Source: an uncultured Bacilli bacterium
GTDB lineage: Bacteria > Bacillota_I > Bacilli_A > RFN20 > DUOF01
Length of the DNA stretch: 64,000 bases
Assembly (NCBI GenBank): GCA_934183255.1
Contig: CAKPSD010000003.1
Location: 18,789-82,788, forward strand
Direction of reading: 5' to 3'
In this document: positions 10,986 through 62,853 of the stretch, in pieces
Numbering within the stretch: position 1 is the stretch's first letter
Layout: each line of letters opens with the position of its first letter
Position numbers and translations under genes: made by a program
The notes under the pieces: model-generated
Told to the model about the DNA's origin: nothing
What the model saw: only the letters and a program-made list of their open reading frames with translations
Databases searched by the model: none

Positions 10986-11471
10986 ATGATTTGTGCCAAA
11001 AATTTACAAGCAATAAATGAAATCATAGAGAAAAGAAAAAACATGGAAACTCCATTAATGATGATATTAAGTGATATTCAACATAAATATGGATACATTG
11101 ACTTAGAAGTACAACAAATAGTAGCAGATGCTTTAAATATACCTGTAAGTGAAGTATATGGAGTAGTAACATTCTACTCATACTTTTCATTACAACCAAA
11201 AGGCAAATATGTAATCGGCATATGCTTTGGTACTGCTTGCTATGTAAAAGGTAGTCAATCATTGTTAGATGCTTTCTCAAATAGGCTTGGAATAAAAGAG
11301 GGAGAAACCACTAAAGATGGTTTATTTACTATTGATATTTTAAGATGTATAGGAGCATGTGGACTAGCACCTGTTGTTAGTGTAAATGGCAAAATATATC
11401 CTCATGTTGCTATAAAAGATGTAGATAAAATAATTGAAGACTGCAAAAAGGAGGAAGCAAATAATGCCTAA
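10986..11471 (+). CDS. [FeFe]-hydrogenase NuoE-like [2Fe-2S] subunit (HydC/HndA type)
   Basis: Thioredoxin-like 2Fe-2S motif: CFGTAC ... CIGACGLAPVV. RBS GAGGTGA. It is translationally coupled to the next gene. Confidence 0.85.
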   Translation: MICAKNLQAINEIIEKRKNMETPLMMILSDIQHKYGYIDLEVQQIVADALNIPVSEVYGVVTFYSYFSLQPKGKYVIGICFGTACYVKGSQSLLDAFSNRLGIKEGETTKDGLFTIDILRCIGACGLAPVVSVNGKIYPHVAIKDVDKIIEDCKKEEANNA

Positions 11472-15067: not shown

Positions 15068-15161
15068 ATTGACATTATTAAGGAAATGTATATTTCAGAT
15101 ATATTTACAAATAAAATAAAAATATAATAAAATGGTTCTAAAGAAAGGAAAGATAAAATAT

Positions 15162-16364
15162 ATGAAGAAAATTTTAAGTACAGTTTGCATGTTTCTACTT
15201 TTATTATCTACCCTAACATTATCAGGATGTAAAAAGGCTAAAAAAGAAGAAACAATAATGAACATTAGTTGTAACCCTAGTGTTGAATTTATCTTAGATA
15301 AAGATAATAAAGTTGTTAGTGTTACTGCCCTAAATGAAGATGGAAATGTAATTTTAGTTGGAGAAACTTTTGTTGGTTTAACTGCTGATGAAGCTGCTAA
15401 ATTATTTGTAAAAATTTCTACTGAAACAGGATTTATAGTAGAAGGAAGTACATCTAATAATGAAGTAAAAGTATCTATTTCAGGAGACAATAAAAAAGCT
15501 AATCAAATATATGATGATGTTAAATCAAAAGTATCAAAATACTTAAGCGATAACAACATTAATGTAAATTTAAAAAATATTGAAGCTCCTACACTAGATG
15601 AATTAAAAGCATTAGTAAAAGATGCTTATCCTACTATTAAAGATGAAATTTTAAATAGTTTAAGTGAATCAGAACTAATAAAATATTTAAAAGAAGTTAG
15701 AATTCTAACTAAAGATTTATTCTCTCAAGGATTAAAAGATGCTTTCGTAGCTATGAAAGATTATGAAATAGAATTTGCTAAAGATGAAAAAACTTTAGAA
15801 ATAATTAATACCCTAGATAGCACTTATTCTCTAGTTATATCTCAATATTCTGAAGCTATTAAAAATTTAAACAGCGCTAAAGTAAAACTAGAAGATGCTA
15901 GAAATAAATATTTATTAAGTGAAACAAGTGATTATCAATTAAAATTAAAAGAATTAAATGATGCTAAAGATAAACTATTAAAAGCAAAAAATGAATTAGC
16001 TAATATGGAAGAAGGATTAGCAAAACAAGCTAAAGCAATAGAAGTTGCTACTTTAGAAACTGCTTATGGATTAGAAGAAACTGCTTATAATACTTATTAC
16101 AATTCAGCAAATATTGCAATTGATAGTAGTCTATTAGCTATTAATACAATAATCAAATCACTAGAAACATTAAAAGAGAATATGCCTGAAGAAATAAAAA
16201 CTATTTTGCAAAATAAAGCAAATGAAATAGAAAATGCCGCTAATACTGCTAAAAATAATTTACTTGAATCATTTGAAAATTCATATAACAAACAAATTGA
16301 AGCTGCTAGAGATGCAGCACTTGCTAGAAAAACTGCTTTAAAAAATGCTGTTTCTGCTAACTAG
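15162..16364 (+). CDS. Lipoprotein with a long A/E/K-rich predicted coiled coil, function unknown
   Basis: Signal peptide plus lipobox: MKKILSTVCMFLLLLSTLTLSGC. I set the start at ATG 15162 rather than the tracked 15132. The C-terminal ~250 aa are heptad-like and rich in A/E/K/L. Confidence 0.75.
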   Translation: MKKILSTVCMFLLLLSTLTLSGCKKAKKEETIMNISCNPSVEFILDKDNKVVSVTALNEDGNVILVGETFVGLTADEAAKLFVKISTETGFIVEGSTSNNEVKVSISGDNKKANQIYDDVKSKVSKYLSDNNINVNLKNIEAPTLDELKALVKDAYPTIKDEILNSLSESELIKYLKEVRILTKDLFSQGLKDAFVAMKDYEIEFAKDEKTLEIINTLDSTYSLVISQYSEAIKNLNSAKVKLEDARNKYLLSETSDYQLKLKELNDAKDKLLKAKNELANMEEGLAKQAKAIEVATLETAYGLEETAYNTYYNSANIAIDSSLLAINTIIKSLETLKENMPEEIKTILQNKANEIENAANTAKNNLLESFENSYNKQIEAARDAALARKTALKNAVSAN

Positions 16365-17489: not shown

Positions 17490-20400
17490 CTATATTGTTG
17501 GTATAGATGATACAGCCTCCCTAAATGCTTCACTCCAAGTAGAATGTTCACCTTTACTAATAGAAGTAACAGTACCACTAGTTAATTGACTAATAACTTC
17601 ATTTGCAATAGTTTGAGCTTGATTTTCACCTAAGAATGCACTTGCTTCAATTGCATCAAGTGTACTTCCTACAACTCCTACTGTAGTATTTCTCTTTTCT
17701 TCAGTCTTTATATCATCACTTGTATATCCCTTAACAGTAGCAATATTTTCATTAATAGTAATTAAATTATCGATTTCTGTAGCCCATACTATATTTTTAT
17801 AATTATTAGTTTCTTCTTTTGTTTTAACATGAACACCATAATCATTTAAACTAGTATTACTATTTATTCCTCCCATTGCACTATCAAGTGTGCTTACATA
17901 CTTACCTTCTAATATTTTACTTAACTTCATAGCATCTAACATTGTAGCTACTCCTACTTTAGTTTCACCTGTTAAAGAAGTAATATCAGTTAAATTATCT
18001 ATTACACTTCTATTTTTAGCATATGCTTTAAATACCGCTGTTTCATTAGAATATTGTAAATAACTATTATACATTAATGTTGCTACACTAACGCCACTAG
18101 AACTAACACCTTCCATATTAATAGTATCTACAGCCTTTATTAATAAATGTGCTCTAGTATTAGATAATAATGTACTATTATCAATACTATTAAACATATT
18201 TTCTAATCTAGTAACACCATTAGTGTCAACATCACTAAAGTTAGATGATGTCATATTTACCATAGATTTAATTATTCCAAGTTCATTAGTCCAATCACTA
18301 ACACTAGCTATACTATTCTTTAAATTAGTTGTGCTATCACTTGCATCTCTATCATCTTTTACACCATTACTTACTAGTAAATCAGTTACCTTATTAACAA
18401 CTATTTGCTTCAATATCTTAGATTTCATAACTTCATTTACTAATCCCCCAACCTTAACTACATCCATTGTCTCAATATCAAGGTTAACTAAATCAGTAAT
18501 TGTATTCTTCTCATCAGCTATATTAAGTAATACACTAGTCTCATTATCCCAGAACGCATCTATCTCTTCTTGATTAGATGTACTAGGCCATTCTATACTT
18601 TCATATTCTTCATTTGTCAATAAAGTACTATTCTTAACTGCATATTTCAAAATATCCACTTTTTTAGTTTTAAATAATTCCATTGCATCTACTGCATCAA
18701 ATACAGTTTCTAAATTAGCTTTAGTAATATTATCACTAACACTAAAATCAACACTTAATACTTCATTAATATTAGTAAATTCATTTTTCCATTTTTCTTT
18801 AGTATCTATAGCAAGTAATTCTTCCTTAGTAAATGATACATCATATTCACTAACAAAATTATTAACTGTATCTTTCATATAATCTACAAAAGGATCCTTT
18901 AACATACTAGACTTATAAACTTCTCCCATAATAATACTCAAAGCATCTACTTTAGTATCTTCTTTCAATAAATCAGTAGAAATATCTCCTAATGATTGAA
19001 GTTCTAATGTACCAGCTGCATCTGCAATTTTCTTTAATAATACTAATTCACTTTCCCATGTATTATAGAAAACTTCTTTAGTAGAATCTTCATTATCTTC
19101 ACCAAAGTTAATCACAGGCATACCATTAATATCTATCTCAAGTCCAATCTTAGGTAATACATAACTATAACTAAATGGTAAGATTGATAATAATGCTTTA
19201 GTGCCTGATAATTCATTTAATAATGCTGTTACATTATTATAATTAACTTTCTCACTATTTTTATATTCATCATATAAAGCATATCCTTTTTCTAATACAT
19301 CAAGCTCCTTAATCCATGCTTCTTTACTATCTACATATTTAAGAACTCTAGCATCAACTTTATAATTCTTTCCTTCTAATTTCTTATTAATTTGCGTACT
19401 TACTACATCTTTAAATAAATAAGAACTATTTAATTCATTTAATAATGTAGCCAAACTATCTTTACTATTATCTTTAATTGCTCCACTTACAAACAACTTA
19501 CTAGCAACATTACTTACAACATCACCATCAGTTATTTCTTTCAAATTAGTAATTTCCATAGTTTTAACAAACTTAATTGCATCTCCAAGTAAATTAGAAA
19601 CTTCATTATTTAAAGCTTCAGTCATTTCACTAGGAACAGTAGCTCCATATTTACCAATATAATTTTCTATTAATCCAGGCATTGCTTTGCTTACTATTCT
19701 AATATTTAACACTTTAGTTATTAATGTTTCTAATTTACCTTCATCTATATTGTTAATAACAGTCATATAGTTATCTTTATTATCCATAATTGTATCAAAC
19801 AAGCCACTAGTAACAGCATACTTAATCGCACCAATTGCACTACTAATATCGGTCTTTAACTCTTGTAAATTAGTATAGCCAATAGTATCAAGTATGTTTT
19901 CATCATTAAATAGTTTAACTAAAGATTCCTTAGATGCATCCATCGCATATTTAACACCAGCATCTAGTGCTTCAGATAATAATTTAGAACTCATTAAATA
20001 GTTAAGTCCTTTTTCTACTTTATCAAAATCCACTGTAGAATAATCTGCCTTTTCAGGATCAAAGTTTTTATCTGTTAATAACTTGATAAGTCCTGAATCA
20101 TTAATAATTGCAAAACTTACTAATAAAGTAGACATTTCTGTTTCAAGACTCATTTTTTCACCATTTATCTTAGCTGTTGTAAGCCTATCACTAACTAATT
20201 TATCTAAACTATGTTTACCACCAATCTTAGCAAAAATAGTATCACCATACATGTCTAAATATTTACAAATAACATCTGAATTTTCAATCCCTGTATTAGA
20301 GCAAATACTAACTTCTGTCTCTAACTCGCTCTCTTTTTTAGCTTTATTATACATTCTATTCACTAAATTAAGTGGTACTAAAATTAAACTAGTTAAAGTT

Positions 20401-20981
20401 AATCCCTGAACTATTCTAATAAGACCGCCTTGTAAACGATGCTTTCTTCTATAAACCTTAACTTTCTTTCCTTTATCATTTCTAAGAACATTACCATCTT
20501 CATCAAATTCATATTTATTTCTATGAAATACATTTTTAGAAATAATACTATAAATTATTAAATATATCCAATAAATAGGAAACAAAAAAGATAAAGGTAG
20601 CCCAACTATCATTAAAGCTAAAAATAATACTGGTGCTGCTATTAATTCAGGCATTGCTATTACCATATTTCTTAAATTATCAGAATAACTAAAAAACTTA
20701 GCAACTTCATCATTTTGTTCTATTTGATAAATAATAAAATTTCTAACACCTTGAATACCATTTATAGTAATATTCATATCTAATACTTTTTTAGTAATAG
20801 GTATTATTGTAAATAAAAGTATAGTCGTATACAAAAACGCCCATATAAATCTTCTAAGAACTTTATATCTACCCCTAATTACTCCAGCCACAAAAAAGTA
20901 AAGAGAAAGCACTAATATTAATGCCCATGGTCCCCACTTAAACAACATCTCAATAGTTTTTTCGCTCACCTGAAACACCAC
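17490..20981 (-). CDS. Large multi-pass membrane protein with an ~950-aa helical repeat domain, function unknown
   Basis: 1163-aa ORF. It has 4-5 N-terminal hydrophobic helices (WALILVLSLYFFVAGVI, FIWAFLYTTILLFTIIPI, IAAPVLFLALMIVGLPLSFLFPIYWIYLIIYSII, LTLTSLILVPLNLV). The long D/E/K/N/L-rich domain that follows has a recurring W-x-x-E-(L/I/F) motif. No catalytic motif was recognised. Confidence 0.8.
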   Translation of the reverse strand: MVFQVSEKTIEMLFKWGPWALILVLSLYFFVAGVIRGRYKVLRRFIWAFLYTTILLFTIIPITKKVLDMNITINGIQGVRNFIIYQIEQNDEVAKFFSYSDNLRNMVIAMPELIAAPVLFLALMIVGLPLSFLFPIYWIYLIIYSIISKNVFHRNKYEFDEDGNVLRNDKGKKVKVYRRKHRLQGGLIRIVQGLTLTSLILVPLNLVNRMYNKAKKESELETEVSICSNTGIENSDVICKYLDMYGDTIFAKIGGKHSLDKLVSDRLTTAKINGEKMSLETEMSTLLVSFAIINDSGLIKLLTDKNFDPEKADYSTVDFDKVEKGLNYLMSSKLLSEALDAGVKYAMDASKESLVKLFNDENILDTIGYTNLQELKTDISSAIGAIKYAVTSGLFDTIMDNKDNYMTVINNIDEGKLETLITKVLNIRIVSKAMPGLIENYIGKYGATVPSEMTEALNNEVSNLLGDAIKFVKTMEITNLKEITDGDVVSNVASKLFVSGAIKDNSKDSLATLLNELNSSYLFKDVVSTQINKKLEGKNYKVDARVLKYVDSKEAWIKELDVLEKGYALYDEYKNSEKVNYNNVTALLNELSGTKALLSILPFSYSYVLPKIGLEIDINGMPVINFGEDNEDSTKEVFYNTWESELVLLKKIADAAGTLELQSLGDISTDLLKEDTKVDALSIIMGEVYKSSMLKDPFVDYMKDTVNNFVSEYDVSFTKEELLAIDTKEKWKNEFTNINEVLSVDFSVSDNITKANLETVFDAVDAMELFKTKKVDILKYAVKNSTLLTNEEYESIEWPSTSNQEEIDAFWDNETSVLLNIADEKNTITDLVNLDIETMDVVKVGGLVNEVMKSKILKQIVVNKVTDLLVSNGVKDDRDASDSTTNLKNSIASVSDWTNELGIIKSMVNMTSSNFSDVDTNGVTRLENMFNSIDNSTLLSNTRAHLLIKAVDTINMEGVSSSGVSVATLMYNSYLQYSNETAVFKAYAKNRSVIDNLTDITSLTGETKVGVATMLDAMKLSKILEGKYVSTLDSAMGGINSNTSLNDYGVHVKTKEETNNYKNIVWATEIDNLITINENIATVKGYTSDDIKTEEKRNTTVGVVGSTLDAIEASAFLGENQAQTIANEVISQLTSGTVTSISKGEHSTWSEAFREAVSSIPTI

Positions 20982-24409: not shown

Positions 24410-27400
24410 CTAAGCTGCTCTTACTTTCTTTCTAAGTTTTAGAATTAAGAATCCACCACCTACTGCAGCAATTCCTCCTAATACATAGAAGATCCATGTG
24501 AAGTTACCTCCACCTTTATTCTTATTATTATCTGGATTTACTGGATTATCTGGATTTACTGGATTATCATTAAATCCATTATTCACTATTCCAATAAGAA
24601 TATAACTCTCATCATCAAAGTTAATTAAGTAGTCTGTTATACCATATAATTCCTTATTAATAACACTCTCAACATTAGAATCTACATTAATTTGGAATGA
24701 TATAGCATTTAATTTAAATGTTTTACCATTAACAGCACCACTAGATAAAATTGAGAAGATAGTATGTTCTTTATCAGGAATAACACCCATAAAGTAAATC
24801 GCATCATTATCACTAATAGAATCTATATCATCAAATTCAAGATATGCTCTACTACTACTCAATTTTTGTAATATTACTCTATCAAATTTAATAGGAGATC
24901 CAGAAGTAACAGTAGTATCAGCTACATTATCTCTATCAATAACATTAAATGTATATTTATCTTCATCTGTTTCTAATTCTTTAGTATCTGGAGCAAGTAT
25001 AACAAATTCATAAACATACCTATTACCAGCTACATCTGTAATAACAAATCTATAATGTCCAAATCCTTCAACAGGTACTCCAGTATCACTATAACATTGC
25101 ATATCTACAAATAGTTTGTTATTCATATAACCTTGTACTCTCATACTTCCACTATCATCAATAAATGATATAGTGAATGAATCAACATCTTTATAAATAT
25201 CATCAATAGGTTTATCAAGAATATTATTATCCTTTATGATATTAACCATTGGAGCCATCTTATCAAATATAAATGTAGCAGTAGTAACTTCTCCAGATAC
25301 ATTTCCTACAGTATCAACTAATCTAAAGTATAGTTTTACTCTAGTTAATGGATCATTTAAGTTAGCTGTATATGCTAAGTTATAAGTATCACCTTCACAT
25401 ACACTCCAATTAGATTCATCCCTGTTATTATTTATAACAACTAAACATTCATAATGATATCTATTGGTGTTATCACTACCACCAGTTATTTTATAATATA
25501 ACTCATCACTATTTGTATAAATACTATCACTAGTTATATCCAAAGTATTTCTTCCATCATAACTTAATTCAATCTTGCTACCAGCTTCATTAGGATTTGT
25601 ATTATCTATTATACTAAAGTATATTTCTAGATATTGTATATTTCCACTTGCATCTGTTACTTTCAAATTAGCTTTAAATCTAGCATATTCTTGATTGCTT
25701 ACAGAATCAGTAGCTGAAATAGAATCAATTATGTATGCTAAGTTTGTATCATAATTATCTCTAACAAAAATATTAGTACGTATCCAACCAGCATCATTAG
25801 ATAAATATTTCATCATCTTTTCATGTTCATTCGATCCTGAATATATTGACCAGTTAACCTCATTATAATTGAATGATTTTTCAATACTACTAGTAGTGAT
25901 ATCATCATTATTCATAGTAAATGTAGGAGAAGTAGTATCTTCAACAAAGATAACATATTCTATTTCACTACTATTCTTACTATCATCATAACAAATCATA
26001 ATGATCTTATAATAACCTGTTCTAGTAAGTTTAATCTTATAATTTTCTTTGTCTTCACTAGATAACTCTATTTCACTAAAGTTAACACCATCATTTGAAT
26101 ACATTAAACTCTTTATAGTTACTTCATGATATTTATCATCTTCATGATCTTTTGAAGTTGGTTTATTTAATTTCAAATCACAAATGTCTTCTTCATTAAA
26201 GCAAACTGTAGGTCTATTTTCGTTGTCTCTAATATTAAGAACAAAGTATATAAATGCTGTATCTCTACTTATAATATATTTAACACCATTAATTTCAAAC
26301 ATGTTATTAGCAGTAATACTTGCAACTTTATTTCCATTACTATCTACAATCTTTTTATCAGTTATATCACTAACATCAATAGTATATTTTACATCACCTA
26401 TAGTAAAGTATTTTCCTTCACTAATAGCTATGATATTATCATCTATTATATCAGGAGAATGCTTATCACCAATATTTAATGTGATACCTATATTAGCATC
26501 ATCAGCTAATGCTTTATTACCAGTTGAATCGATTACTTCATAAATAATTCTATATGAACCAGGCAACATAAATGTAAAGCTATTTCCTTCATTTACAATA
26601 TATAGTCTATCGTTATAGTAGTACTTATTATTTTCAAATGTTATTTCTTCATATTCATTATTTATCTTAAATTTAATAATTCTTCTAACACCAATACATT
26701 CACCATCAGCAGTATTACAAGTAACAATATTGCCTTCACTATCAAATCCATAATTATCACTAACTGTAATTCCTGCATCAGTATATGTGTAGCCATTAAC
26801 ATTAGTTATATCATAATAATAAGCTTTTCCATATGCATAAGTTCCATTTACTCTAAACTCTGGTTTTGCTTCATCAACTACTTTTATAGTTAATGTAACA
26901 GTATTTGATTTATTTCCAGCAACATCGCTATAAGAAACATCAAAATTATAATCACCAATCTTATTAAATATAAAGTCAGTTTCACTAAATACCCATTCAC
27001 TATCATTTGCAGATACTTTATGATTGTTGAATGAAATTAATAATCTAGATTTTTCATCTATTGTTAAGTTACTATAAAATTTTCCATCTACTTGATTAAT
27101 AAAGTATCCTGATATTATTTCTTTTATTTTAGAACTTGAAAGAGATATGTTATTAATACTCTTATTTACAACAACTAATAATGTACAATTTGAAGTATTC
27201 TTAGAATCACATTCAATTTTCTTACTACTATAATAACTATTTGTTTTAACTTTTATTTCAGGACTTATAAAATCAAGTTTGATTTCTGATTCATTTGAAA
27301 CACCAGCTGAGTTATATGATGTTATAACTAATGAGCTAAGTTTATAATCAGAAGCTTTTAAAGCATCAGCATATATAGAACTTACTAAGTTACTTAATAA

Positions 27401-52914: not shown

Positions 52915-52944
52915 TTAAAAAACCCATTATTTCTAATGGGCTTT
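52915..52944 (-). terminator. Rho-independent terminator after the 158-aa gene, separating it from the giant gene
   Basis: On the minus strand, CCCATTA-gaaa-TAATGGG (52923-52940) is followed by UUUUUU (plus-strand A-run 52917-52922). Confidence 0.7.
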
Positions 52945-52946
52945 TA

Positions 52947-53423
52947 TTAATCATCATTAAACCAATCGTCAAACGACATTGAACTAAACTTTTTATCTAC
53001 TTTCTTTTTCTTATTAGGATTTTCAATGCCTAATTCATCCATAATATCCTTCAAAACTCTCTCTCTCAAATCTGTATCATTTGAAACAAGTTTTATTAAT
53101 TCTTGTTGAATATCTGGAATCATTTCAATAGAATTCATTAAAGTTTCAACTTTTCTACTATCTTTGCAAGAAACACTAGAAACTCTATTAACTTCTTGCA
53201 TTAAATCAAATCCCTTATTTAAAACTTCATTAGTATTAATAGTTGTCGTGGATAAATGCGCTAGCCACATAAAAATCTTTTTATTACAATCAAATAATAC
53301 ATCAATATTACCTTGATTTTTCATAAAGTTAGGTTTATCCAAAACATCTAGTATTTTAGGGTATTCTCCCTTAATTGCCATCACAATGTTTTTTACTTTT
53401 GCTTTTTCTCCACCAGTTAACAT
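52947..53423 (-). CDS. Hypothetical cytoplasmic helical protein (158 aa) with a Lys-rich stretch and an acidic aromatic C-terminus
   Basis: The ORF has a strong RBS (AGGAG, 7-nt spacer) 13 nt after the stop of the upstream gene. It has no signal peptide and no TM. It ends ...NPNKKKKVDKKFSSMSFDDWFNDD. No family was recognised. Confidence 0.7.
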   Translation of the reverse strand: MLTGGEKAKVKNIVMAIKGEYPKILDVLDKPNFMKNQGNIDVLFDCNKKIFMWLAHLSTTTINTNEVLNKGFDLMQEVNRVSSVSCKDSRKVETLMNSIEMIPDIQQELIKLVSNDTDLRERVLKDIMDELGIENPNKKKKVDKKFSSMSFDDWFNDD

Positions 53424-53436
53424 ATTAAACTCCTAA

Positions 53437-54486
53437 TTAAGCTGACTTTCTTGAAGTTAAATGATTTTTCTCACTTTTACGAGATAATACTAAATCAAAA
53501 CTTCTCTTTGTAAGTAAAGTAACATTGTTTAAATCTGCTGTATTATTAGCTTTAATAACACCAAATGGCCATTCGCCTTGTTTTTGGCAATCAATTACTC
53601 TATAAGCTTTATTTTTTCCAGTAACAAAGTAAACAACGCCTTGTAAACTTTGTCTAGCTATTTTTTCTGCTTGCTCATAGAATGGTTCCATATCTACAAT
53701 CACATTGCTAGAAGTAGCACCATAATCTTCTCTTAAAATATCTATTAATTCACTAGCAGAAATCATTCCTACTATCTCAATTGGTTTTCCTTTATATGTA
53801 CTTACAACAGGATAAATTTTCTTAGGAATTTCTTTTTCATCTTTAAATGGGATATTGATAATTACAGGAACAGTAACACTAGAAGGATTAGTTACTGCAG
53901 CAGCACTACTAATCTTACCTCTATACATATCATTACCATCAATTTGAATAAATTTACCATCACCATTAGGTAATCTAAGCCCCATCTTAGAATAATCATC
54001 TTTAACTCCAGATAATACTGTAACATTATCTAATGCTGTTTCAAAAGAGAAACTAGCTCCTTTTCTTTTTATAGGAACGCCTTCTCCTTGTTCTGCCTTT
54101 AATAAAGCTTCTTTCAAACTATTTGTTACTGAATAATTATAACGATAGAATAATTTGAAATATTCAAATCCTTTATTACTACTATTACTTTCATATACTT
54201 TCTTTAAATCATCATAGTACTTACTAGCTTCAGGTAAATTAATTAAGTTCTCTTCTCCCATATAGTAGAAACTATCTTTAATATTTTCACTATATCCCTT
54301 AACTAAAATTGAAGAGTACTCTGTCGAAATAAAATCAGTAGAAATACTAGTTGCAATAGCAGCCAAATTAGTATTTTCACCTAAATCACTTGTTTTTATA
54401 ATTTTAAGTTCACACAATTTATCTCTAATTACACTTAAATCTTTTAAAATTTCTTTGGTATAATACCTACCTTTATAATTTAACAT
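53437..54486 (-). CDS. Hypothetical cytoplasmic protein (~349 aa), family not recognised
   Basis: The tracked ORF runs 53437-54537 from a TTG with no RBS. The ATG at comp. 54484-54486 (MLNYKGRYY...) follows GAGGAG and is preferred. It has no signal peptide or TM and has a mixed alpha/beta-looking composition. Confidence 0.7.
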   Translation of the reverse strand: MLNYKGRYYTKEILKDLSVIRDKLCELKIIKTSDLGENTNLAAIATSISTDFISTEYSSILVKGYSENIKDSFYYMGEENLINLPEASKYYDDLKKVYESNSSNKGFEYFKLFYRYNYSVTNSLKEALLKAEQGEGVPIKRKGASFSFETALDNVTVLSGVKDDYSKMGLRLPNGDGKFIQIDGNDMYRGKISSAAAVTNPSSVTVPVIINIPFKDEKEIPKKIYPVVSTYKGKPIEIVGMISASELIDILREDYGATSSNVIVDMEPFYEQAEKIARQSLQGVVYFVTGKNKAYRVIDCQKQGEWPFGVIKANNTADLNNVTLLTKRSFDLVLSRKSEKNHLTSRKSA

Positions 54487-54566
54487 TTTATCTACACTCC
54501 TCGTTTGTATATTATCATAAATTAAAGAAATACTCAATTGTTTTTTTAATTCTAAGCTTATTTTTA

Positions 54567-57500
54567 TTATGCTGCTCTAACTCTTCTTCTAAGTCTTATA
54601 ATTTGATAGCCTAAGAACAATGTAGCAAGAGCACCAGTGATAATAAGAACAGTACCAAGCGCGCCATTCTTTTCACTCTTTTTATCCTCTTTATCTATTA
54701 TTGTAGGTTCATTAACATCTGTCTTAACAATTACATATGCATAATAAGATTCATTAAAATTCAAGAAATAATCCATACTCTTATATCCATCAATAAATTT
54801 CTCACCATTGCTTATAAGCGTAATCTTATTAGCTCCAGCAACATCTTTTCCACTCATGCTATACATAACAAATACATTTTCCGTATTAGGAACAAGACCT
54901 AAAACATACACGATATCTTTAGAAGTTATATTTAGGACGCTTAAATCAGTATTCACATTAATATAACCATTAGCGTCATATTCTGTATTAACCTTAACTA
55001 ATAATCTCTTATCAAATGAAACTGAAGTAGTAATGGAATCCTTATCTTTTATATCATTTACTACATTTACATATTTATTAGTATTTATAACAAAATCAAC
55101 AATTGTAGTATTACCATAACTATCTAATGCTTCAATCCTATATGTACCATTCTTACTAAGTTTGCAAGGTAAATCTTCTTTAGTTAAATCTAATAATTCA
55201 TTATTTAGCCATATCTTAACACTAGCTAAGCTATTATCGGTAACATTTACTTCAACTTCTGTTTCTACTATTTCATTATTATCTACTCCACTTATAATAG
55301 GATTAGAAGTATCTACAATTATTGTCTTACAACTAATATTGTCACTAATGTTTTGATAAGAATCAACCGCTCTAATACAAACTCTTACTTCAGAATTTAA
55401 ATTATTACCAAATTCTAATTTAGAATTTTCTGTATAACGTATCCAATCTCCATTTTGGACACTATATTCATGCCACCAGTTACTAGAGTTATCATCTCCA
55501 CCAACAATAGCTATAGCTATACTAGTAGAATTAGTTGATTCAGGTAATACAAGTTCACCAGCAACAGGCTTAGTAGTATCAACAAATCTAACATAAATAC
55601 TTATACGAGTTTCATTAAGTGATAAATCTTTAGCAATTAAAACAACTTCATAATCATAAATATTATTATCCTTTATTTCATAAGTTATATTAACATCAGA
55701 ATAATAATTATCTACAGCATAAACATTATATTTATCAATAATATCCCTTACAACATCAAAATTATAATCAAGATCTAACTCTATAACTGTATTTTCATTT
55801 ATTCCTTTTATTTCTGGTTTAGTATTATCAATAACCTTTACTTCATATTCAAATGTAGACATATGATTAGTAGAATCAGTAGCTGTAAATCTAATATAAT
55901 AATTTCCCACTTTTGTAAACTTAAATTTCAATCCATTAGCATCTTCACTAACCAAATGTGTTTCATTACTTTTTGCCTTAGTACCTATATTATTAGAAAC
56001 ATAAACTCCAGCAAATAACACATCAATAAACTTATCTTCTCCCTCATCATAACTAGAAGGTTTCTTTAATGTTTGAGTAGGAATAGTAACTTGTCCTAAA
56101 GCATTTCTATTACCAACAATAACTTCAAATGAATTAGTATCTCCATATGCACTTGTAATAACAGGAGCCTTATTATCACTAACAGTAATAGTTTGTTCAA
56201 TAGCAGCTTCATTATTTGAAGCATCATAAACAGTATAAGTAAATTTATATACTCCTGGTTTACTAAACTTATAAATATTATCGCTAACTTTAACAATATT
56301 TAAGCAATATTTTCCACTACAAACAGCTTTATCTAAAGAATAAATTTTATTTTTAACTAATGTTCCAGAAATATTTTCCATTGCGTAATTGTCAATAGCT
56401 TCAACTCCTAGTATTTCTACCTTTTCATTTAATTCAACATTATTTACATTAGTAATGATTCTTAATTCAGGAGCTAAAGTATCTACTACATTAACCTTAA
56501 ATATCTTCTCTTCTGCTTTATTAAGAGATATACTAGTATAATTAATCTTAATAGTATAATTTCCTATACTATCAAATAAATTACTAGAATAAAGATTCTC
56601 ACCACTATATACATCTACTTTAAGCTTAGAATCATTAACTAAATCATTATAATTCATACCATTAATATTTAAATTCAAAGCTCTTAATAAGTCACCTAAA
56701 TCAATATTATCTTTCCCAATTTCAACATTCAAAGCTTCATTCTTTATAGTATAACTACTATTACCTAATGTAATAATATTACCCTCGATATCATCTATAT
56801 AAATATTAGGTATCTTACTATCATAATTAATAATAGTTTCTGCTACTCTATTAGCTTTATCTGTGACTTTAATAGTAATCTTATCATATTCCTCTGCACT
56901 ACTATTAATAAGATCTAGAATGCTAACACCATATTCACATATACTTCTATTAACTAAGCATTTACCAATATTACTCATATAACTATAATTCAAATATGTT
57001 TTATTTGAACCATTAGAAACAATAATATCAATAACACTAAAGTTTTCTTCACTAACGCTTATATATAGTCCCTCTAATGATCCATATATATTTGCTACAA
57101 CAGCTTGGTAATAATAAGTATCATTTATTTTCTTATACACATTAATAACAGGGCTTACCATATCAGTAATAATCTTCACTTCTTTTTCATTATTAGAAAT
57201 ATCATAAACTTTTAAAATATAATTCCCTGTTTCTAAACGATAAAATAAAGTATTACCATTTATTTCTATATTATCTCTATTACAATTATAATCACTTGCA
57301 CTATCATTAAAATAACATGTAGATAATAAAGTATTATTTTCAAAATCATATAATTCAAAATAATTAATTTGCTTATTATCAGTCATTTTAACTTTTATTG
57401 AACTGCTAACATAGACTAAATCACCACTAATAAGTGTATAGTTAGAATTATAATTTCCAGAACTATTCTTTAATGAATAATAAACGCTAGGAGCTTCATC

Positions 57501-60500
57501 ATCAAAACGTGTAACTACTTCAACTAAATCAATAAGATTATTATCAACATAAACAAAGAAAGTAATCTTTTTATCTTCATTTATAGATATTGTATAAACA
57601 TTATTAGAAACACTATAAGATTCACTCTTACATATTGAAGATACACTAACACCACAAGATTCAATTGTATCTATATCATATGTTTGTGTAGATGTAATGT
57701 TATCATCTACTACATATATAAATCTAGTAACGCTCTTACTTCCTAAATTATTTATAACTACTTTTATATTCTTATTTTTAGCATTGAAGTATGCTTTAGC
57801 ACTTACACTACTAGTAATAGAACTATAATCATAATTTCTAATACTCTCATTTTTTGCCTCATCAACTAATTTTAAAACAAACATAGCAGATGTATCATTT
57901 CTATTAAATGTATATACATACTCACCATTATTACTAGTAAACTCTACTTTCTCATAACTACCATTTATATTAATATATAATTCTTCTACTAATTCACTAT
58001 ACATAATAAGCGAATAAGTATTATCACTATTTTTAATGGTATCAATAATAATTTCATCAAAACTAGGACTAATTGTATCCATATTAATATTCTTATCAAT
58101 CTTCTTAAGAATATAATTACCTATTTCATTTCTAACATATATCCATAAATAATATGAATCATCTACATTATTTTTACTAATAATTTGATTATTAATTGAA
58201 AGCTTATTAAATCCATAATAATTTAAAAAATTAGATATTGTTCCACTATAGTTTTCTTTTTCTTGTTCTAAATTAATATTTTTAGATACAAGTGCATATT
58301 GTATATATCCTTTTTCAATTAAATAATTAACATTGCTATTTTCAATATTTAATATTATTTTATTATATTTTTTACTTTCATCTATTAAGTTATTATTAGA
58401 ATCATATATATTAACTCTAATTTCTCCAACACTAGCAGAGTATCTAACATTAAATGCATATGTTTCACTAGCATTACCTGCTTCATCATATAAATAATAA
58501 GAAATAACTCCTGTAAAATTAATTGGTGAACTAATACTTAATTCTCTATTAACATAATATCCATCTTTAAGATAACTAGAAATATTATATGAATTACAAG
58601 AAGATTTAAAACAAACATACGCTTTTAAATTACTATTATTTCCATTAGCTATATCAAATAAACTATTTTGAACAAATTTCAATTTAATTTGAGTCTCATT
58701 TGAATAATTATAAATTTTCTTACCATCTTCAATTGTAATATATAAGTTATTAGAATTATTAGTGTATAAAGTTACAGATTCATTATTAATAATAGGATTA
58801 ATACTATCGTAATATATTTTAATAATTTCTAATTTATCATTACCATATACATCAATAGCGTATACATATAAACTATTTTCTCCTTCAATTAAAGATAAAT
58901 CGCTTAAAGAATAACTATTTGAACTACTAACATCTAAATTAACAAAGCCTGAAGACAATTCTTTATTAACATAAGAACAATTATTTAAGCAATATGCTAC
59001 TCTTTCTATATCTTCATAAGAATTACTATGAGTAACACTAAAACTTATATTTCTATTATTAGTAAATTTATTTTGATCAAAACTAGAAGTGACAGCTAAT
59101 GTTGGAATTCTAATATATAATTTATTACTTGAATAAGTAGCGCTATTGCCAGCACTATCTTTAGCGTATACTTTAAACTTATAAGCTACACCATTTTCAA
59201 ACTTACTTGAATCTATTTGTACTTTATCAATAACGCATAAATTAGAACCAAGATTACAGCTTTCATATTTAACACGTTGAACACTAACATTAGTATCATA
59301 CACTACAAATTCATAATATATTTCATCAATATTTATAAAACTTAACACATCGCTTATTTCTACTTGATATGTAAAGTTAGTAATATACTCTGAACTATTG
59401 CCATTAGTAATGTTTCCTTCACCATCTCTCATAGCAATAGCAGGCGCTTCTTTGTCTACAAAGATATCTTCAACATATGCATATGAAACATTATTAGCTG
59501 AATCAATAGCTCTAATATATAAATTATATTTACCAGTACTATTTGGACTAGTAATAATTAATTGCTTACTAGATAATATAGAATTATCAGTTATGTTTCT
59601 ACTAATTGTAGTATCACTACTATAAAAATAATTGTTAAAGTTTTCTTCACTGTAGAAAACACTTATATTGTTTGATCTATCAACACTATATTTTTTAGTA
59701 GTAAAGAAATATGAATATCTAGCATGCTTACTACCTGTAGTTTCCTTTTCATCAAACATAACTTTAAATCTATGTTCATTCTTGTAAACATCATTTTCTA
59801 AATTACTTTCCCCATTTTCCTTATATACATTTATAGAAATTTCTTCTCTATCTATACTTTCAATAACATATGTTAACTTTTTAAAATTACCAATTATATC
59901 TTCTATATAGAATGTATATTCACCATTTTCTGAAATAGCATATGCACTAATAGGACTACCAAAATCGCTACCATCATAATAAGTAACATTATTTTTTCCT
60001 CTTTCACAATTTACATTTGAAACATTTTTTCCAACAGCTACACACTTAATTGTACTAATATCATTGAATTCTATTAATGTGCTAATAACATCATTAGTAT
60101 ATGCATTAGAAGCATCAACTTGCACTCCATCAACCATAAAAGCAACGTTAAACTCATCTATATCATTATCAAACTTCAAATAATCTCCACAAATAACTTT
60201 ATCATTTTGTTTAACACATAACATATAACTGCCATTTAGATTAACATTTCCCTCAATTAATATCGAAGATGAATTCTTTTTAATAACATTTGTAAAGTTA
60301 TTAACACTATTTCCTTCTTTTATCCATTTATAATAAAAGTCTGTTCCATCTTCAAACATAAATGCATTAACTTCAACAGAATGATTCTTTCTAACTTCTT
60401 TTCCACTCTTATAATCAAAAGCCATATTAACTTCTAAACTTTTATTAACACAAGTTATGTTAAGTGCATAATCTCTTATACACAAATAAATATTATATGT

Positions 60501-62687
60501 GCCATTTTCTAAATCACTAGGTAATGAATAAGCAAATTTTGTATTTTCTTCTATGCTTTTCCACTCACTACATTCACTACTTGTATTAGATAAGCAATAT
60601 GATTCTAAATCCTTATCATTACTAGATAACTCTACATCAATTTTATTACCACTAACTAAATAGTTTTTATCATTAGAAGAAATACCTTTATACAATGGAT
60701 AATTAAAGTTCATATTAATATTAGGATTACTATCATCTAACGTATAACTTTGTACATAATCTTGAGCAAATTCATTCTCAAATACATCTTTGGCAAACCC
60801 TTTTTCTATAACTAAAGAGAAAGAATTAAGTCCCGCTAATACATCACTTGTAATATTAACTATTAATTTATTATTCTCTAAAGAAATATTTTCCTTACTA
60901 ACACTTATAATTTGAGTTCCACTCTTAATATATACTTTTGATAAATCATAAGTTAATTCGCTTATATCTTCTATTAATAATTCAAAAGTAATTTTTGTAG
61001 AATCACCACTATAAATTATATTATCAATTTCTTTACCATTTTCTATAACTATATTTTCACTAGAAAATATAGGATTTTTATTATCAGAATATAATTCAAG
61101 ATCTATATTGTAATTAACAATTTTATCTAATCCATTTTCTCCAGTTATAACAAAACCATCAAAATTAATATTAAGTTTTCCATTATATGATTCTAAAACA
61201 GTAATATCTATAACTAAATTAGAAGCCATAAATGAAATTACTGGAGAAGCACTAACATTACCAAATGTAACCTTTATTTTATTAATATCAGCACTAGAAA
61301 CACTAATACCATCTTTAACAGGAATAACAATGTTAATATTATCTCCTTTTTTAACATATTTACTAGATGTCAAAATACCATCTCTAGTAACCTTATATGT
61401 TATTGATTCAAAGTTTAAATCAGGATCTTTAGAATTTATATGAACGCCTTTATCTTCTAGAACATCTCCATTATTATCAACTACTGTAAATTCATATGTT
61501 GCATTTTTTATCGCATCTAAAATATTACCATTTAAATCATAAATATATGAATAGTCATAATTAACTTTAGCACTACTTACATAACCATTCTTTTCTATAG
61601 ATCTAACACGACAAGAATAAATTATTGCATTACTAGAACTACTACTATATGTACAAGTAGCATAATCATCAATTGTAATTACAGGCAAATCATTTTTTAT
61701 AGCATTTATATCCTCACTAAAAACCATCTTTATTAGTAAAGGATTAGTGATTGAATAAATTCCTTTTACTACCTCTAATCTTGATATTACTGGTTTTAAT
61801 CCATCAACTTTAAAATTCTTATTTATAGCAATATTACTTACATCAATATTTCCCCTAATTTTATTATTATATCTATCTTTTATTTGATTATTATTAGAAA
61901 TACTAGTAACAGAAAAATTTCCCTCATCTCCAGAAGCTATAGTATAAGAACATTCAATATAAGATCTAATAGAATAAAGATTGTTATTACAAGTAACTGA
62001 TCTAGAAGACTCTCCTATTTTAAATTTAAGAACACTAACTTTATTAAATATTTCTTCATTAAAATTAATTGTAAATTTAATAGTATCTCCAATTCTTAAA
62101 GTTCTAGAAGAACTATCATTTACTATAGCTAAATCAACACTAGTAACGCTAGGAGCTACCACATCCAAACTTAAATCTCCATTTTTATTAGTTTTACCGC
62201 CACCAAGTGGAATAAAACCAATTGCTTTTTTCACATTATCTGCTTCTATATATAAAACAACAACACCAGTTTTTGTTCCATCATAAGTACTATTTGGTTT
62301 AAAAACATTAGTTATACTTGATTTTGGTATAGTATATTCTCTAAGTATTTGTGCACAAGTACCACCATTATATTTATCACAAATTTGTTTTTTAGTAAGT
62401 CCATTAGAATAAGAAGTAGTACCACTATTAATATCTATACTATTATCTATACTACTAGATGTAAATCCATATTTTATATAATTAAAATTATTTTCATCAT
62501 ATCCTATATATACTTTTAAATCGCCATCATCTAATTTGTAATCATTAGGTATAATAATAACTGGGCCATCATCTTTTGCTTCTACTTTAATTGAATTGCA
62601 TACAAACCCTGTACAAATTAGCATAAATAAAAACAACACATACTTAAATATGTCGTTAAAATTCATCTTATTTTTTTGTTGAACCAT
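54567..62687 (-). CDS. Large (2,706 aa) secreted, C-terminally membrane-anchored multi-Ig-like repeat protein, paralogous in architecture to the giant ORF
   Basis: RBS AAGGAG. Signal peptide MVQQKNKMNFNDIFKYVLFLFMLICTGFVCNSIKVEA. Module starts of the xDxxxP type: LDVVAPS, VDGLKPV, VDKEAPA, VDTLAPE, IDNTKPE, VDTTKPV, VDTSNPI. DxxGN-type motifs: AKDSAGNSAT, LYDEAGNASE, ALDSYGNTTI. The C-terminus is the TM helix GALGTVLIITGALATLFLGYQII plus RLRRRVRAA. Confidence 0.93.
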   Translation of the reverse strand: MVQQKNKMNFNDIFKYVLFLFMLICTGFVCNSIKVEAKDDGPVIIIPNDYKLDDGDLKVYIGYDENNFNYIKYGFTSSSIDNSIDINSGTTSYSNGLTKKQICDKYNGGTCAQILREYTIPKSSITNVFKPNSTYDGTKTGVVVLYIEADNVKKAIGFIPLGGGKTNKNGDLSLDVVAPSVTSVDLAIVNDSSSRTLRIGDTIKFTINFNEEIFNKVSVLKFKIGESSRSVTCNNNLYSIRSYIECSYTIASGDEGNFSVTSISNNNQIKDRYNNKIRGNIDVSNIAINKNFKVDGLKPVISRLEVVKGIYSITNPLLIKMVFSEDINAIKNDLPVITIDDYATCTYSSSSSNAIIYSCRVRSIEKNGYVSSAKVNYDYSYIYDLNGNILDAIKNATYEFTVVDNNGDVLEDKGVHINSKDPDLNFESITYKVTRDGILTSSKYVKKGDNINIVIPVKDGISVSSADINKIKVTFGNVSASPVISFMASNLVIDITVLESYNGKLNINFDGFVITGENGLDKIVNYNIDLELYSDNKNPIFSSENIVIENGKEIDNIIYSGDSTKITFELLIEDISELTYDLSKVYIKSGTQIISVSKENISLENNKLIVNITSDVLAGLNSFSLVIEKGFAKDVFENEFAQDYVQSYTLDDSNPNINMNFNYPLYKGISSNDKNYLVSGNKIDVELSSNDKDLESYCLSNTSSECSEWKSIEENTKFAYSLPSDLENGTYNIYLCIRDYALNITCVNKSLEVNMAFDYKSGKEVRKNHSVEVNAFMFEDGTDFYYKWIKEGNSVNNFTNVIKKNSSSILIEGNVNLNGSYMLCVKQNDKVICGDYLKFDNDIDEFNVAFMVDGVQVDASNAYTNDVISTLIEFNDISTIKCVAVGKNVSNVNCERGKNNVTYYDGSDFGSPISAYAISENGEYTFYIEDIIGNFKKLTYVIESIDREEISINVYKENGESNLENDVYKNEHRFKVMFDEKETTGSKHARYSYFFTTKKYSVDRSNNISVFYSEENFNNYFYSSDTTISRNITDNSILSSKQLIITSPNSTGKYNLYIRAIDSANNVSYAYVEDIFVDKEAPAIAMRDGEGNITNGNSSEYITNFTYQVEISDVLSFINIDEIYYEFVVYDTNVSVQRVKYESCNLGSNLCVIDKVQIDSSKFENGVAYKFKVYAKDSAGNSATYSSNKLYIRIPTLAVTSSFDQNKFTNNRNISFSVTHSNSYEDIERVAYCLNNCSYVNKELSSGFVNLDVSSSNSYSLSDLSLIEGENSLYVYAIDVYGNDKLEIIKIYYDSINPIINNESVTLYTNNSNNLYITIEDGKKIYNYSNETQIKLKFVQNSLFDIANGNNSNLKAYVCFKSSCNSYNISSYLKDGYYVNRELSISSPINFTGVISYYLYDEAGNASETYAFNVRYSASVGEIRVNIYDSNNNLIDESKKYNKIILNIENSNVNYLIEKGYIQYALVSKNINLEQEKENYSGTISNFLNYYGFNKLSINNQIISKNNVDDSYYLWIYVRNEIGNYILKKIDKNINMDTISPSFDEIIIDTIKNSDNTYSLIMYSELVEELYININGSYEKVEFTSNNGEYVYTFNRNDTSAMFVLKLVDEAKNESIRNYDYSSITSSVSAKAYFNAKNKNIKVVINNLGSKSVTRFIYVVDDNITSTQTYDIDTIESCGVSVSSICKSESYSVSNNVYTISINEDKKITFFVYVDNNLIDLVEVVTRFDDEAPSVYYSLKNSSGNYNSNYTLISGDLVYVSSSIKVKMTDNKQINYFELYDFENNTLLSTCYFNDSASDYNCNRDNIEINGNTLFYRLETGNYILKVYDISNNEKEVKIITDMVSPVINVYKKINDTYYYQAVVANIYGSLEGLYISVSEENFSVIDIIVSNGSNKTYLNYSYMSNIGKCLVNRSICEYGVSILDLINSSAEEYDKITIKVTDKANRVAETIINYDSKIPNIYIDDIEGNIITLGNSSYTIKNEALNVEIGKDNIDLGDLLRALNLNINGMNYNDLVNDSKLKVDVYSGENLYSSNLFDSIGNYTIKINYTSISLNKAEEKIFKVNVVDTLAPELRIITNVNNVELNEKVEILGVEAIDNYAMENISGTLVKNKIYSLDKAVCSGKYCLNIVKVSDNIYKFSKPGVYKFTYTVYDASNNEAAIEQTITVSDNKAPVITSAYGDTNSFEVIVGNRNALGQVTIPTQTLKKPSSYDEGEDKFIDVLFAGVYVSNNIGTKAKSNETHLVSEDANGLKFKFTKVGNYYIRFTATDSTNHMSTFEYEVKVIDNTKPEIKGINENTVIELDLDYNFDVVRDIIDKYNVYAVDNYYSDVNITYEIKDNNIYDYEVVLIAKDLSLNETRISIYVRFVDTTKPVAGELVLPESTNSTSIAIAIVGGDDNSSNWWHEYSVQNGDWIRYTENSKLEFGNNLNSEVRVCIRAVDSYQNISDNISCKTIIVDTSNPIISGVDNNEIVETEVEVNVTDNSLASVKIWLNNELLDLTKEDLPCKLSKNGTYRIEALDSYGNTTIVDFVINTNKYVNVVNDIKDKDSITTSVSFDKRLLVKVNTEYDANGYINVNTDLSVLNITSKDIVYVLGLVPNTENVFVMYSMSGKDVAGANKITLISNGEKFIDGYKSMDYFLNFNESYYAYVIVKTDVNEPTIIDKEDKKSEKNGALGTVLIITGALATLFLGYQIIRLRRRVRAA
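54570..54662 (-). other. C-terminal TM anchor plus basic tail of the 2,706-aa protein
   Basis: ALGTVLIITGALATLFLGYQII followed by RLRRRVRAA-stop. The tail matches the giant protein's LRKKVRAA. Confidence 0.8.
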
Positions 62688-62726
62688 TAACCATCAACTC
62701 CTTAGATATTATAAATATCTACTTAA

Positions 62727-62755
62727 ATAATATAATATTTACATGACAATTTCAA
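62727..62755 (-). promoter_or_regulatory. Candidate sigma-A promoter of the 2,706-aa gene operon
   Basis: The minus strand reads TTGAAA (62750-62755) - 17 nt - TATTAT (62727-62732), about 40 nt upstream of the ATG. Confidence 0.4.
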
Positions 62756-62787
62756 CTTTTTTATAAGTTACCAACATTACCAAACAA

Positions 62788-62812
62788 TTAAAAAGCCATT
62801 ATAAATGGCTAT
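62788..62812 (-). terminator. Rho-independent terminator after tsaD
   Basis: On the minus strand, AGCCATT-tat-AATGGCT (62794-62810) is followed by UUUUU (plus-strand A-run 62790-62794). Confidence 0.65.
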
Positions 62813-62853
62813 TAATAAAATTAATATTAAAATAAAAAGTTTTTTGTCTAATT

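Follow-up and report, generated by a model that had tools for sequence, protein, structure and literature searches.

A conserved two-gene operon next to genes for giant surface proteins defines two new protein families in a clade of uncultured gut Bacilli

The 64-kb stretch of DNA analysed here (contig CAKPSD010000003.1 of an uncultured Bacilli bacterium, positions 18,789 to 82,788; G+C 27%), referred to below as the window, carries on its minus strand, in this order, an open reading frame (ORF) of 2,706 amino acids (aa), one of 366 or 349 aa depending on the start codon, one of 158 aa and one of 9,442 aa. The two small genes in the middle, called here the 349-aa and 158-aa genes, each represent a protein family that is new and confined to a single clade of uncultured gut Bacilli. 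As judged from its sequence signals, the pair is an autonomous bicistronic operon with its own predicted promoter, two ribosome-binding sites and its own terminator. Both genes are real and, by the substitution patterns described below, are constrained like housekeeping genes, far more than chance ORFs (Table 1).

A preliminary description of this region, drawn from the letters of the sequence, had reported two same-strand ORFs at these positions, and both are present. The longest ORF of the 349-aa gene opens with a TTG at 54537, encodes 366 aa (53437-54537) and begins 29 nucleotides (nt) past the stop codon of the 2,706-aa gene. The true start is predicted to be the ATG at 54486, 80 nt past this stop, because the N-terminus that it yields, MLNYKG, is conserved and is preceded by the ribosome-binding site GAGGAGTG. 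In an alignment of 26 homologues of the 349-aa protein, MLNYKG is invariant and nothing is conserved upstream. Both distances to the stop of the giant gene given in the preliminary description are therefore right, the 80 nt measured from the ATG being the true one. The AGGAGTG of this ribosome-binding site is invariant in the eight aligned lineage-A loci (8/8), and among 13 gaps only two sublineage-D loci deviate past the AAGGAG core. The 158-aa gene starts 13 nt after the stop codon of the 349-aa gene and has its own AGGAG within the spacer, as had been described. This spacer measures 1-30 nt in 14 of 14 relatives and nearly always contains a purine-rich ribosome-binding site. At the loci examined, the 349/158 junction is never broken and the order of the two genes is constant. 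The pair is translationally coupled only in the loose sense of this close spacing, since the two genes do not overlap.

Table 1. Position of the features discussed in the window, and gene order at the homologous loci (designated by L numbers) of each sublineage.
Feature or sublineage	Position or loci	Strand	Description
349-aa gene	53437-54486	-	predicted soluble basic protein, isoelectric point (pI) 8.6; dN/dS 0.05-0.21
158-aa gene	52947-53423	-	predicted soluble acidic protein, pI 5.6; dN/dS ~0.10
Promoter-like element of the pair	54509-54537	-	phylogenetic footprint
Ribosome-binding site GAGGAGTG of the 349-aa gene	54495-54502	-	sequence and alignment
AGGAG ribosome-binding site of the 158-aa gene	53430-53434	-	within the 13-nt spacer
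Intrinsic terminator closing the pair	52915-52945	-	-13.4 kcal/mol, z = -3.56, followed by UUUUUU
2,706-aa surface protein	54567-62687	-	N-terminal signal-like segment, immunoglobulin-like repeats, transmembrane helix and RLRRRVRAA
9,442-aa surface protein	24410-52738	-	same transmembrane helix and LRKKVRAA ending
1,163-aa polytopic membrane protein	17490-20981	-	without Pfam family; downstream of the pair
A (62-99% identity to the window), A'	L001-L016; L027		tsaD, giant (2,700-3,060 aa), 349, 158, topB, M29 peptidase, membrane protein (1,161-1,388 aa), PTA
B, F	L017, L025; L028, L029		giant, rubrerythrin, 354/364, 161/164, orphan 339-344 aa, membrane protein (1,412-1,499 aa), PTA, cysS, mgtC, spoU, sigma
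C	L020, L021		giant, rubrerythrin, 336, 159
D	L022-L024		efp, TMEM164-like, ..., giant (2,122 aa), 347, 140/144, membrane protein (1,312 aa), PTA, HAD, ABC
E	L019		giant-like C-terminus (...ARKSVKVA), terminator, promoter, 371, small protein

Inside the 80-nt gap, a -35 element TTGAGT (54537-54532), a 17-nt spacer and an extended -10 element TGaTAATAT (54517-54509) read as a predicted sigma-70-type promoter with an extended -10. When eight loci are aligned, there is no variation at the positions of the -35, TG, -10 or ribosome-binding site, and the remaining spacer varies freely. The layout TTGNNN-17-TGNTANNNT is found in 13 of 13 gaps, whether the upstream gene encodes a giant protein or a rubrerythrin, and in all 13 the 349-aa gene is preceded by the promoter and a AAGGAGTG ribosome-binding site. 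It should be noted that the case for this promoter rests on the phylogenetic footprint, because its score falls under the 9/12 threshold of a simple promoter scan. The motif has a single match in the 64-kb window, and its interpretation as a regulon signal was rejected for that reason.

The terminator proposed downstream of the pair is present as a hairpin followed by a U-run (Table 1). At three loci representing three sublineages (L012, L021 and L019), an intrinsic terminator also lies between the upstream gene and the promoter of the pair. No terminator was seen in the window's own 80-nt gap, so that read-through from the 2,706-aa gene into the pair is possible there. The proposal that the pair and the 2,706-aa gene form one operon does not hold, as the pair keeps its own promoter in all relatives examined and three of them have a terminator upstream. 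The giant gene also appears to be a transcription unit of its own, because the region between tsaD and this gene (62688-62853) contains a hairpin and T-run terminator (AATAGCCATTTATAATGGCTTTTT) and a promoter region of the TTGAAA...TATTAT type. No RNA element of the region matched Rfam at E <= 1.

The ratio of nonsynonymous to synonymous substitution rates (dN/dS) was taken against the closest relative (L005): the 349-aa and 158-aa genes have values of 0.05 and 0.10, the giant gene one of 0.34. Because of these low ratios and those listed in Table 1, both small ORFs are considered real genes under strong purifying selection. In a more distant comparison, with L007, the 349-aa and 158-aa proteins retain 83% and 75% amino acid identity, values comparable with those of TopB (80%) and PTA (78%). 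TsaD retains 88% and the M29 peptidase 90%; the giant protein retains 38% and the downstream membrane protein 49%.

An exhaustive hidden Markov model search of 1.84 billion protein representatives returned 13 matches, all from one clade, and a metagenome scan added one further locus. A word-indexed search retrieved 34 clusters at 90% identity for the 349-aa protein and 106-129 for the 158-aa protein, all of them unnamed or annotated as 'hypothetical protein'. The named records of the family are metagenome-assembled genomes (MAGs) of 'uncultured Bacilli bacterium' from gut or faecal samples. In one NCBI MAG contig (L017 3661-4170) the 164-aa counterpart of the 158-aa gene is broken and only its C-terminal 133 aa are in frame. 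The gene is intact in near-identical contigs (L025 10001-10495 and L018 1795-2289), and the broken copy is an assembly error or a pseudogene.

Neither protein has a signal peptide or a transmembrane helix by hydropathy, in agreement with the preliminary description: the maximal Kyte-Doolittle values over 19 residues are 1.28 (349 aa) and 0.69 (158 aa), below the cut-off of 1.6 used for membrane or secreted proteins, and the neighbouring membrane protein reaches 2.5. Both proteins are thus predicted to be soluble and cytoplasmic. That neither belongs to a recognisable family was also borne out. Searches of Pfam, NCBIfam, PHROGs and PADLOC with both window proteins gave chance-level or sub-threshold matches only, no curated family scoring above threshold. 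Diverse members of both families fared likewise against Pfam and PADLOC, apart from a recurrent sub-threshold match of the small protein to HEPN_RiboL-PSP. Sequence-profile searches of the PDB with narrow and broad alignments returned nothing below E = 0.009, and no homology to a housekeeping family was found. Foldseek searches with the AlphaFold2 models (PDB for both proteins, BFVD for the 349-aa protein) yielded no match at E <= 0.001; the TM-scores ranged from 0.1 to 0.46 and the matches were generic helical bundles only. RF2 and GldM were discarded as structural matches of the 349-aa protein (TM-scores 0.12-0.23), and paralogy between the 349-aa and 158-aa proteins was rejected (hhalign probability 0.4%).

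The AlphaFold2 model of the 349-aa protein (predicted local distance difference test, pLDDT, 73; predicted template modelling score, pTM, 0.48) consists of a helical N-terminal domain (residues ~1-132), a beta-rich middle domain (~142-262) and a C-terminal part that is poorly modelled and finishes with a basic helix or tail. Besides the N-terminus, the residues invariant across the family are L24, D34, M76, N80, L81, Y109, G143, D164, N211, Y225, Y255 and Y270. Reading the alignment by eye revealed no conserved NTPase or nucleotidyltransferase motif. Because the invariant residues form no recognisable catalytic set, the 349-aa protein may be a binding or scaffold protein. The 158-aa protein, which had been described as helical-looking, is modelled as a confident helical bundle (residues 4-131; pLDDT >90 for ~10-110) with helices at 4-28, 37-54, 59-78, 89-114 and 119-131. 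Residues 131-158 form a disordered tail made of a basic linker and the terminal SFDDWFNDD. Both sequence features first noted in this protein, the KKKKVDKK stretch and the SFDDWFNDD C-terminus, are indeed present.

The tail differs between sublineages. It reads ...IMDELGIENPNKKKKxDKKFSSMSFDDWFNDD in sublineage A, ...IMDELGIESP(Ser/Gly/Lys linker)YxSIDDLFADLED in sublineages B, C and F, and ...IMDELGIVDPNAKKKHSLW in sublineage D, in which KKHSLW replaces the acidic-aromatic ending. Three features are common to all of these sequences: the final helix of the bundle (LKxIMDELG), a flexible linker and, at the very end, a patch of hydrophobic or aromatic residues. Sublineages A, B, C and F keep the hydrophobic pattern of this patch in an acidic background, with an i, i+3, i+4 spacing (F/I, W/L, F) that is consistent with a short amphipathic docking helix. 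The tip was also compared with that of SSB. SSB-type C-terminal acidic tips have the sequence D-D-D-I/L-P-F-COOH. This type was rejected for the 158-aa protein and its relatives, as they end in ...WFNDD, ...FADLED or ...HSLW, lack a terminal P-F and have tails that are not conserved between sublineages.

Giant genes accompany the pair beyond the window. A giant protein ending in a transmembrane helix followed by RRRVRA[AI] or a close variant is encoded upstream of the pair in 7 of the 7 sublineages with a readable upstream gene, so that the linkage to giant ORFs holds in other genomes. Where the flanking sequence is long enough, every sublineage shows the same succession: giant, (rubrerythrin), 349, 158, ..., polytopic membrane protein, PTA. 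The endings read (window 54567-54660 and 24410-24500; L005-L029) are RLRRRVRAA, LRKKVRAA, MRRKVKAA, RRRVRAI and ARKSVKVA, and all giants next to the pair have a transmembrane helix followed by [KR]x[KR][KR][KR][VI][RK]A[AI] or a close variant. This 8-residue cytoplasmic ending is near-invariant, the giants being 26-63% identical elsewhere, and it looks like a clade-specific anchoring or recognition signal.

The pair had been described as wedged between two giant genes, which is true of the window and of its closest relative and of none of the other relatives. A 9,442-aa gene between the pair and topB is found only in the window and, as an open giant-like frame downstream, in the 96%-identical L005. 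No second giant occupies this position in L001-L004, L006-L008, L014 or L027, and in the other sublineage-A genomes the 158-aa gene leads directly to topB or to the M29 peptidase gene. Because of this distribution, the 9,442-aa gene points to a recent insertion or expansion.

How might the two proteins work? As the genes are always adjacent, in the same order and tightly spaced, and as the products are of opposite charge (pI 8.6 and 5.6), the 349-aa and 158-aa proteins may act as one complex. The 158-aa protein would be a helical-bundle adaptor whose tethered motif Phi-D-D-Phi-Phi (SFDDWF or SIDDLF; SLW in one sublineage) would dock into a helical groove, offered for example by the 349-aa partner in its N-terminal helical domain, or by another protein. 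The complex would act at the cytoplasmic face of the membrane with the tail-anchored giant, with the polytopic membrane protein (~1,200-1,500 aa) or with both, and could help to organise, anchor or regulate the surface structure. The 8-residue ending RRRVRAA of the giant is kept though the rest diverges to 26-40% identity. We put forward tentatively, as the best but speculative reading, a soluble two-protein complex located at the cytoplasmic face of the cluster of giant and membrane proteins. The more specific proposal, a new cytoplasmic adaptor complex that would recognise the invariant RRRVRAA of the giants, possibly together with the ~1,300-aa polytopic protein, and would position, anchor or regulate the fibres, we consider unlikely.

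Several observations weigh against a complex that serves the giants. The pair has its own promoter, and three sublineages place a terminator upstream of it. A rubrerythrin gene can separate the giant gene from the pair, and a 339-344-aa orphan, topB with the M29 peptidase gene, or a second giant gene can separate the pair from the membrane protein gene. The unrelated PTA, mgtC, spoU methylase and sigma factor genes are equally syntenic between sublineages, the order PTA ... mgtC-spoU-sigma of the window being the same as in B and F. AlphaFold2 places the tail of the 158-aa protein without confidence, and this tail does not covary with that of the giants: sublineage D has KKHSLW, yet its giant keeps RRRVRAI. 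A direct docking of the acidic 158-aa tail on the basic ending of the giants is weakened accordingly, since D loses the acidic tail and the ending of its giant is unchanged. Adjacency in itself is weak evidence of a shared function and may simply be inherited, because collinearity of unrelated genes is common in the clade. The best support for a meaningful cluster, although modest, comes from sublineage D, in which both outer flanks differ (efp/TMEM164 on the left, HAD/ABC on the right) and the block giant-347-140-membrane protein-PTA persists. No homology linking the pair to the service of giants was found. Operon-encoded chaperones are co-transcribed with their substrate, and here a promoter lies between the giant gene and the pair in 13 of 13 loci. 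The dedicated chaperone, targeting or regulatory role for the fibre proteins suggested in the preliminary description thus has the conserved linkage on its side and the promoter, the intervening rubrerythrin gene, the synteny of unrelated genes and the lack of tail covariation against it; the data neither disprove nor bear out a function as chaperone or in targeting.

Almost equally likely as the giant-linked complex is a module that is specific to this clade and works in the cytoplasm, for example as a complex that binds nucleic acids or proteins, with a role unrelated to the giants and lying beside them through the stable gene order of small AT-rich genomes. The autonomous, conserved promoter and terminator and a conservation at housekeeping level are what such a module would show. 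The same is true of the insertion of unrelated genes on both sides in different sublineages and of the collinearity of unrelated genes over more than 30 kb between sublineages, in a region that also holds tsaD, topB, ribosomal-protein and rpoB/C-type genes. This explanation sits less well with the block that sublineage D keeps despite its rearranged outer flanks, and with the occurrence of the family only together with such giants, as far as visible.

The small protein could alternatively be a degenerate, catalytically inactive HEPN-like four-helix domain, the pair having come from a HEPN-type conflict system and being now an RNA-binding or regulatory module. This is improbable, and the HEPN-like origin is a lead, not a finding. 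It arises from weak matches of 15 of 21 family members to PF18735 (RiboL-PSP-HEPN; best E = 3e-4, 21.2 bits), all of which lie under the gathering score of 28.4 bits (12.5 bits for the window protein) and are not independent, the members being mutually homologous. The HEPN fold carries an Rx4-6H motif at the start of helix 4 (PMC3710099). The predicted topology of the 158-aa protein, two long helices, a helical insert and two more helices, is compatible with the description in that work, and its helix order with an up-down four-helix fold in which an insert separates helices 2 and 3. Foldseek recovers no HEPN entry: no HEPN structure is in the top 50 against the PDB and no match has E < 0.06. 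At the start of the last helix, where HEPN proteins have Rx4-6H, sublineages A and D have R120-x4-K125, and B, C and F have S, G, N or similar residues in place of the Arg; a conserved His is lacking. Nor is an MNT, ParB, L-PSP or restriction-modification partner, as is typical of conflict systems, present. Literature searches retrieved nothing relevant on RF39 together with giant proteins or on RiboL-PSP.

A pair that was inserted between the giants and is active in toxin-antitoxin function or anti-phage defence, the other option raised in the preliminary description, would account for a tightly spaced two-gene cassette of families without a match and for the weak HEPN-like signal. It is nonetheless very improbable and was abandoned. 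In every sublineage, even at 26-33% identity, the pair is found at one and the same chromosomal locus; it is under strong purifying selection and has no mobility genes nearby. PADLOC found nothing for the 349-aa family and only scattered weak ZorB, BrxF and JetA matches, in 1-3 members, for the 158-aa family, and tblastn searches with the pair against 50,697 phage and 72,556 plasmid records came back without a homologue.

Comparisons with HEPN proteins, toxin-antitoxin and defence systems, operon-encoded chaperones, SSB-type tails and sortase-type signals left the pair outside each of these groups, and the families are new only in this narrow sense that they could be assigned to no known family or system. 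In its organisation, the closest analogue is the gli locus of Mycoplasma mobile. In the order gli123-gli349-gli521-gli42, the genes of giant surface proteins are followed by that of a 42-kDa protein (Gli42/P42) whose localisation is unclear (PMC7052211). As with Gli42, a protein of about 350 aa (42 kDa for Gli42) is encoded here directly after giant membrane-anchored surface proteins, and in both systems evolution is slower in the internal components than at the surface (PMC7052211). By contrast, there is no detectable sequence relationship to Gli42, as judged indirectly from the profile search of 1.84 billion representatives, which matched only this clade. Gli42 is reported to be translated together with the giants, whereas the pair described here has its own promoter; no second small partner has been described for Gli42, and there is no evidence of motility here.

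FAT and GIT1 domains, four-helix bundles that recognise short acidic amphipathic helices (LD motifs), provide an analogy of the 'works like' kind only. The generic bundle matches include 6iuh for the 158-aa protein and 2lk4 for the 349-aa protein, and SFDDWF/SIDDLF has the i, i+3, i+4 hydrophobic spacing of LD-motif docking helices. The TM-scores of 0.16-0.41 and E > 0.3 indicate no homology, however, and the interaction proposed here is only presumed. The neighbouring giants resemble LPXTG/sortase-anchored proteins in ending with a hydrophobic helix followed by a basic cluster. They differ in that no LPXTG-like motif precedes the transmembrane helix in the giant tails read, the invariant part being the extreme ending R-R-x-V-R-A-A, and neither protein of the pair resembles a sortase.

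Other genes of the neighbourhood were also surveyed. The gene of the polytopic membrane protein lies downstream of the pair wherever a sublineage offers enough sequence. The protein measures 1,161-1,499 aa (for example L025 11664-16163 and L023 8901-12839), with N-terminal transmembrane helices and a long helical repeat-like body. It is fast-evolving (49% identity where TopB has 80%). The rubrerythrin gene is found in three sublineages, B, F and C (L025 8270-8797, L028 4375-4914 and L021 2507-3046). In B and F, the small gene is immediately followed by a soluble orphan of 339-344 aa and pI 9.3 (L025 10508-11542 and L028 6724-7743) that has no Pfam match and no similarity to the 349-aa protein. 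Because topB is absent from the L006 locus (11540-12723), where the M29 peptidase gene comes straight after the 159-aa gene, it is dispensable or relocated in the clade. Finally, between PTA and mgtC, where B and F have cysS, the plus strand of the window (10986-16364) carries a set of [FeFe]-hydrogenase genes and encodes an RsgI-like protein.

Orphan pairs like this one are common in uncultured lineages and imply no new kind of biology, and nothing seen here points to an unusual mechanism. If the pair services the giants, it would give a handle on how widespread uncultured gut Bacilli manage surface proteins of 2,000-9,000 residues, together with two new families that each have a testable binding motif. 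The adaptor, if it exists, would be a new solution, unrelated in sequence and fold, to a problem that Mycoplasma meets with the accessory proteins of its attachment organelle and gliding machinery. Otherwise, the pair stands as two well-delimited, constrained orphan families, with promoter, starts and terminator defined, which should not be annotated as part of an adhesin operon.

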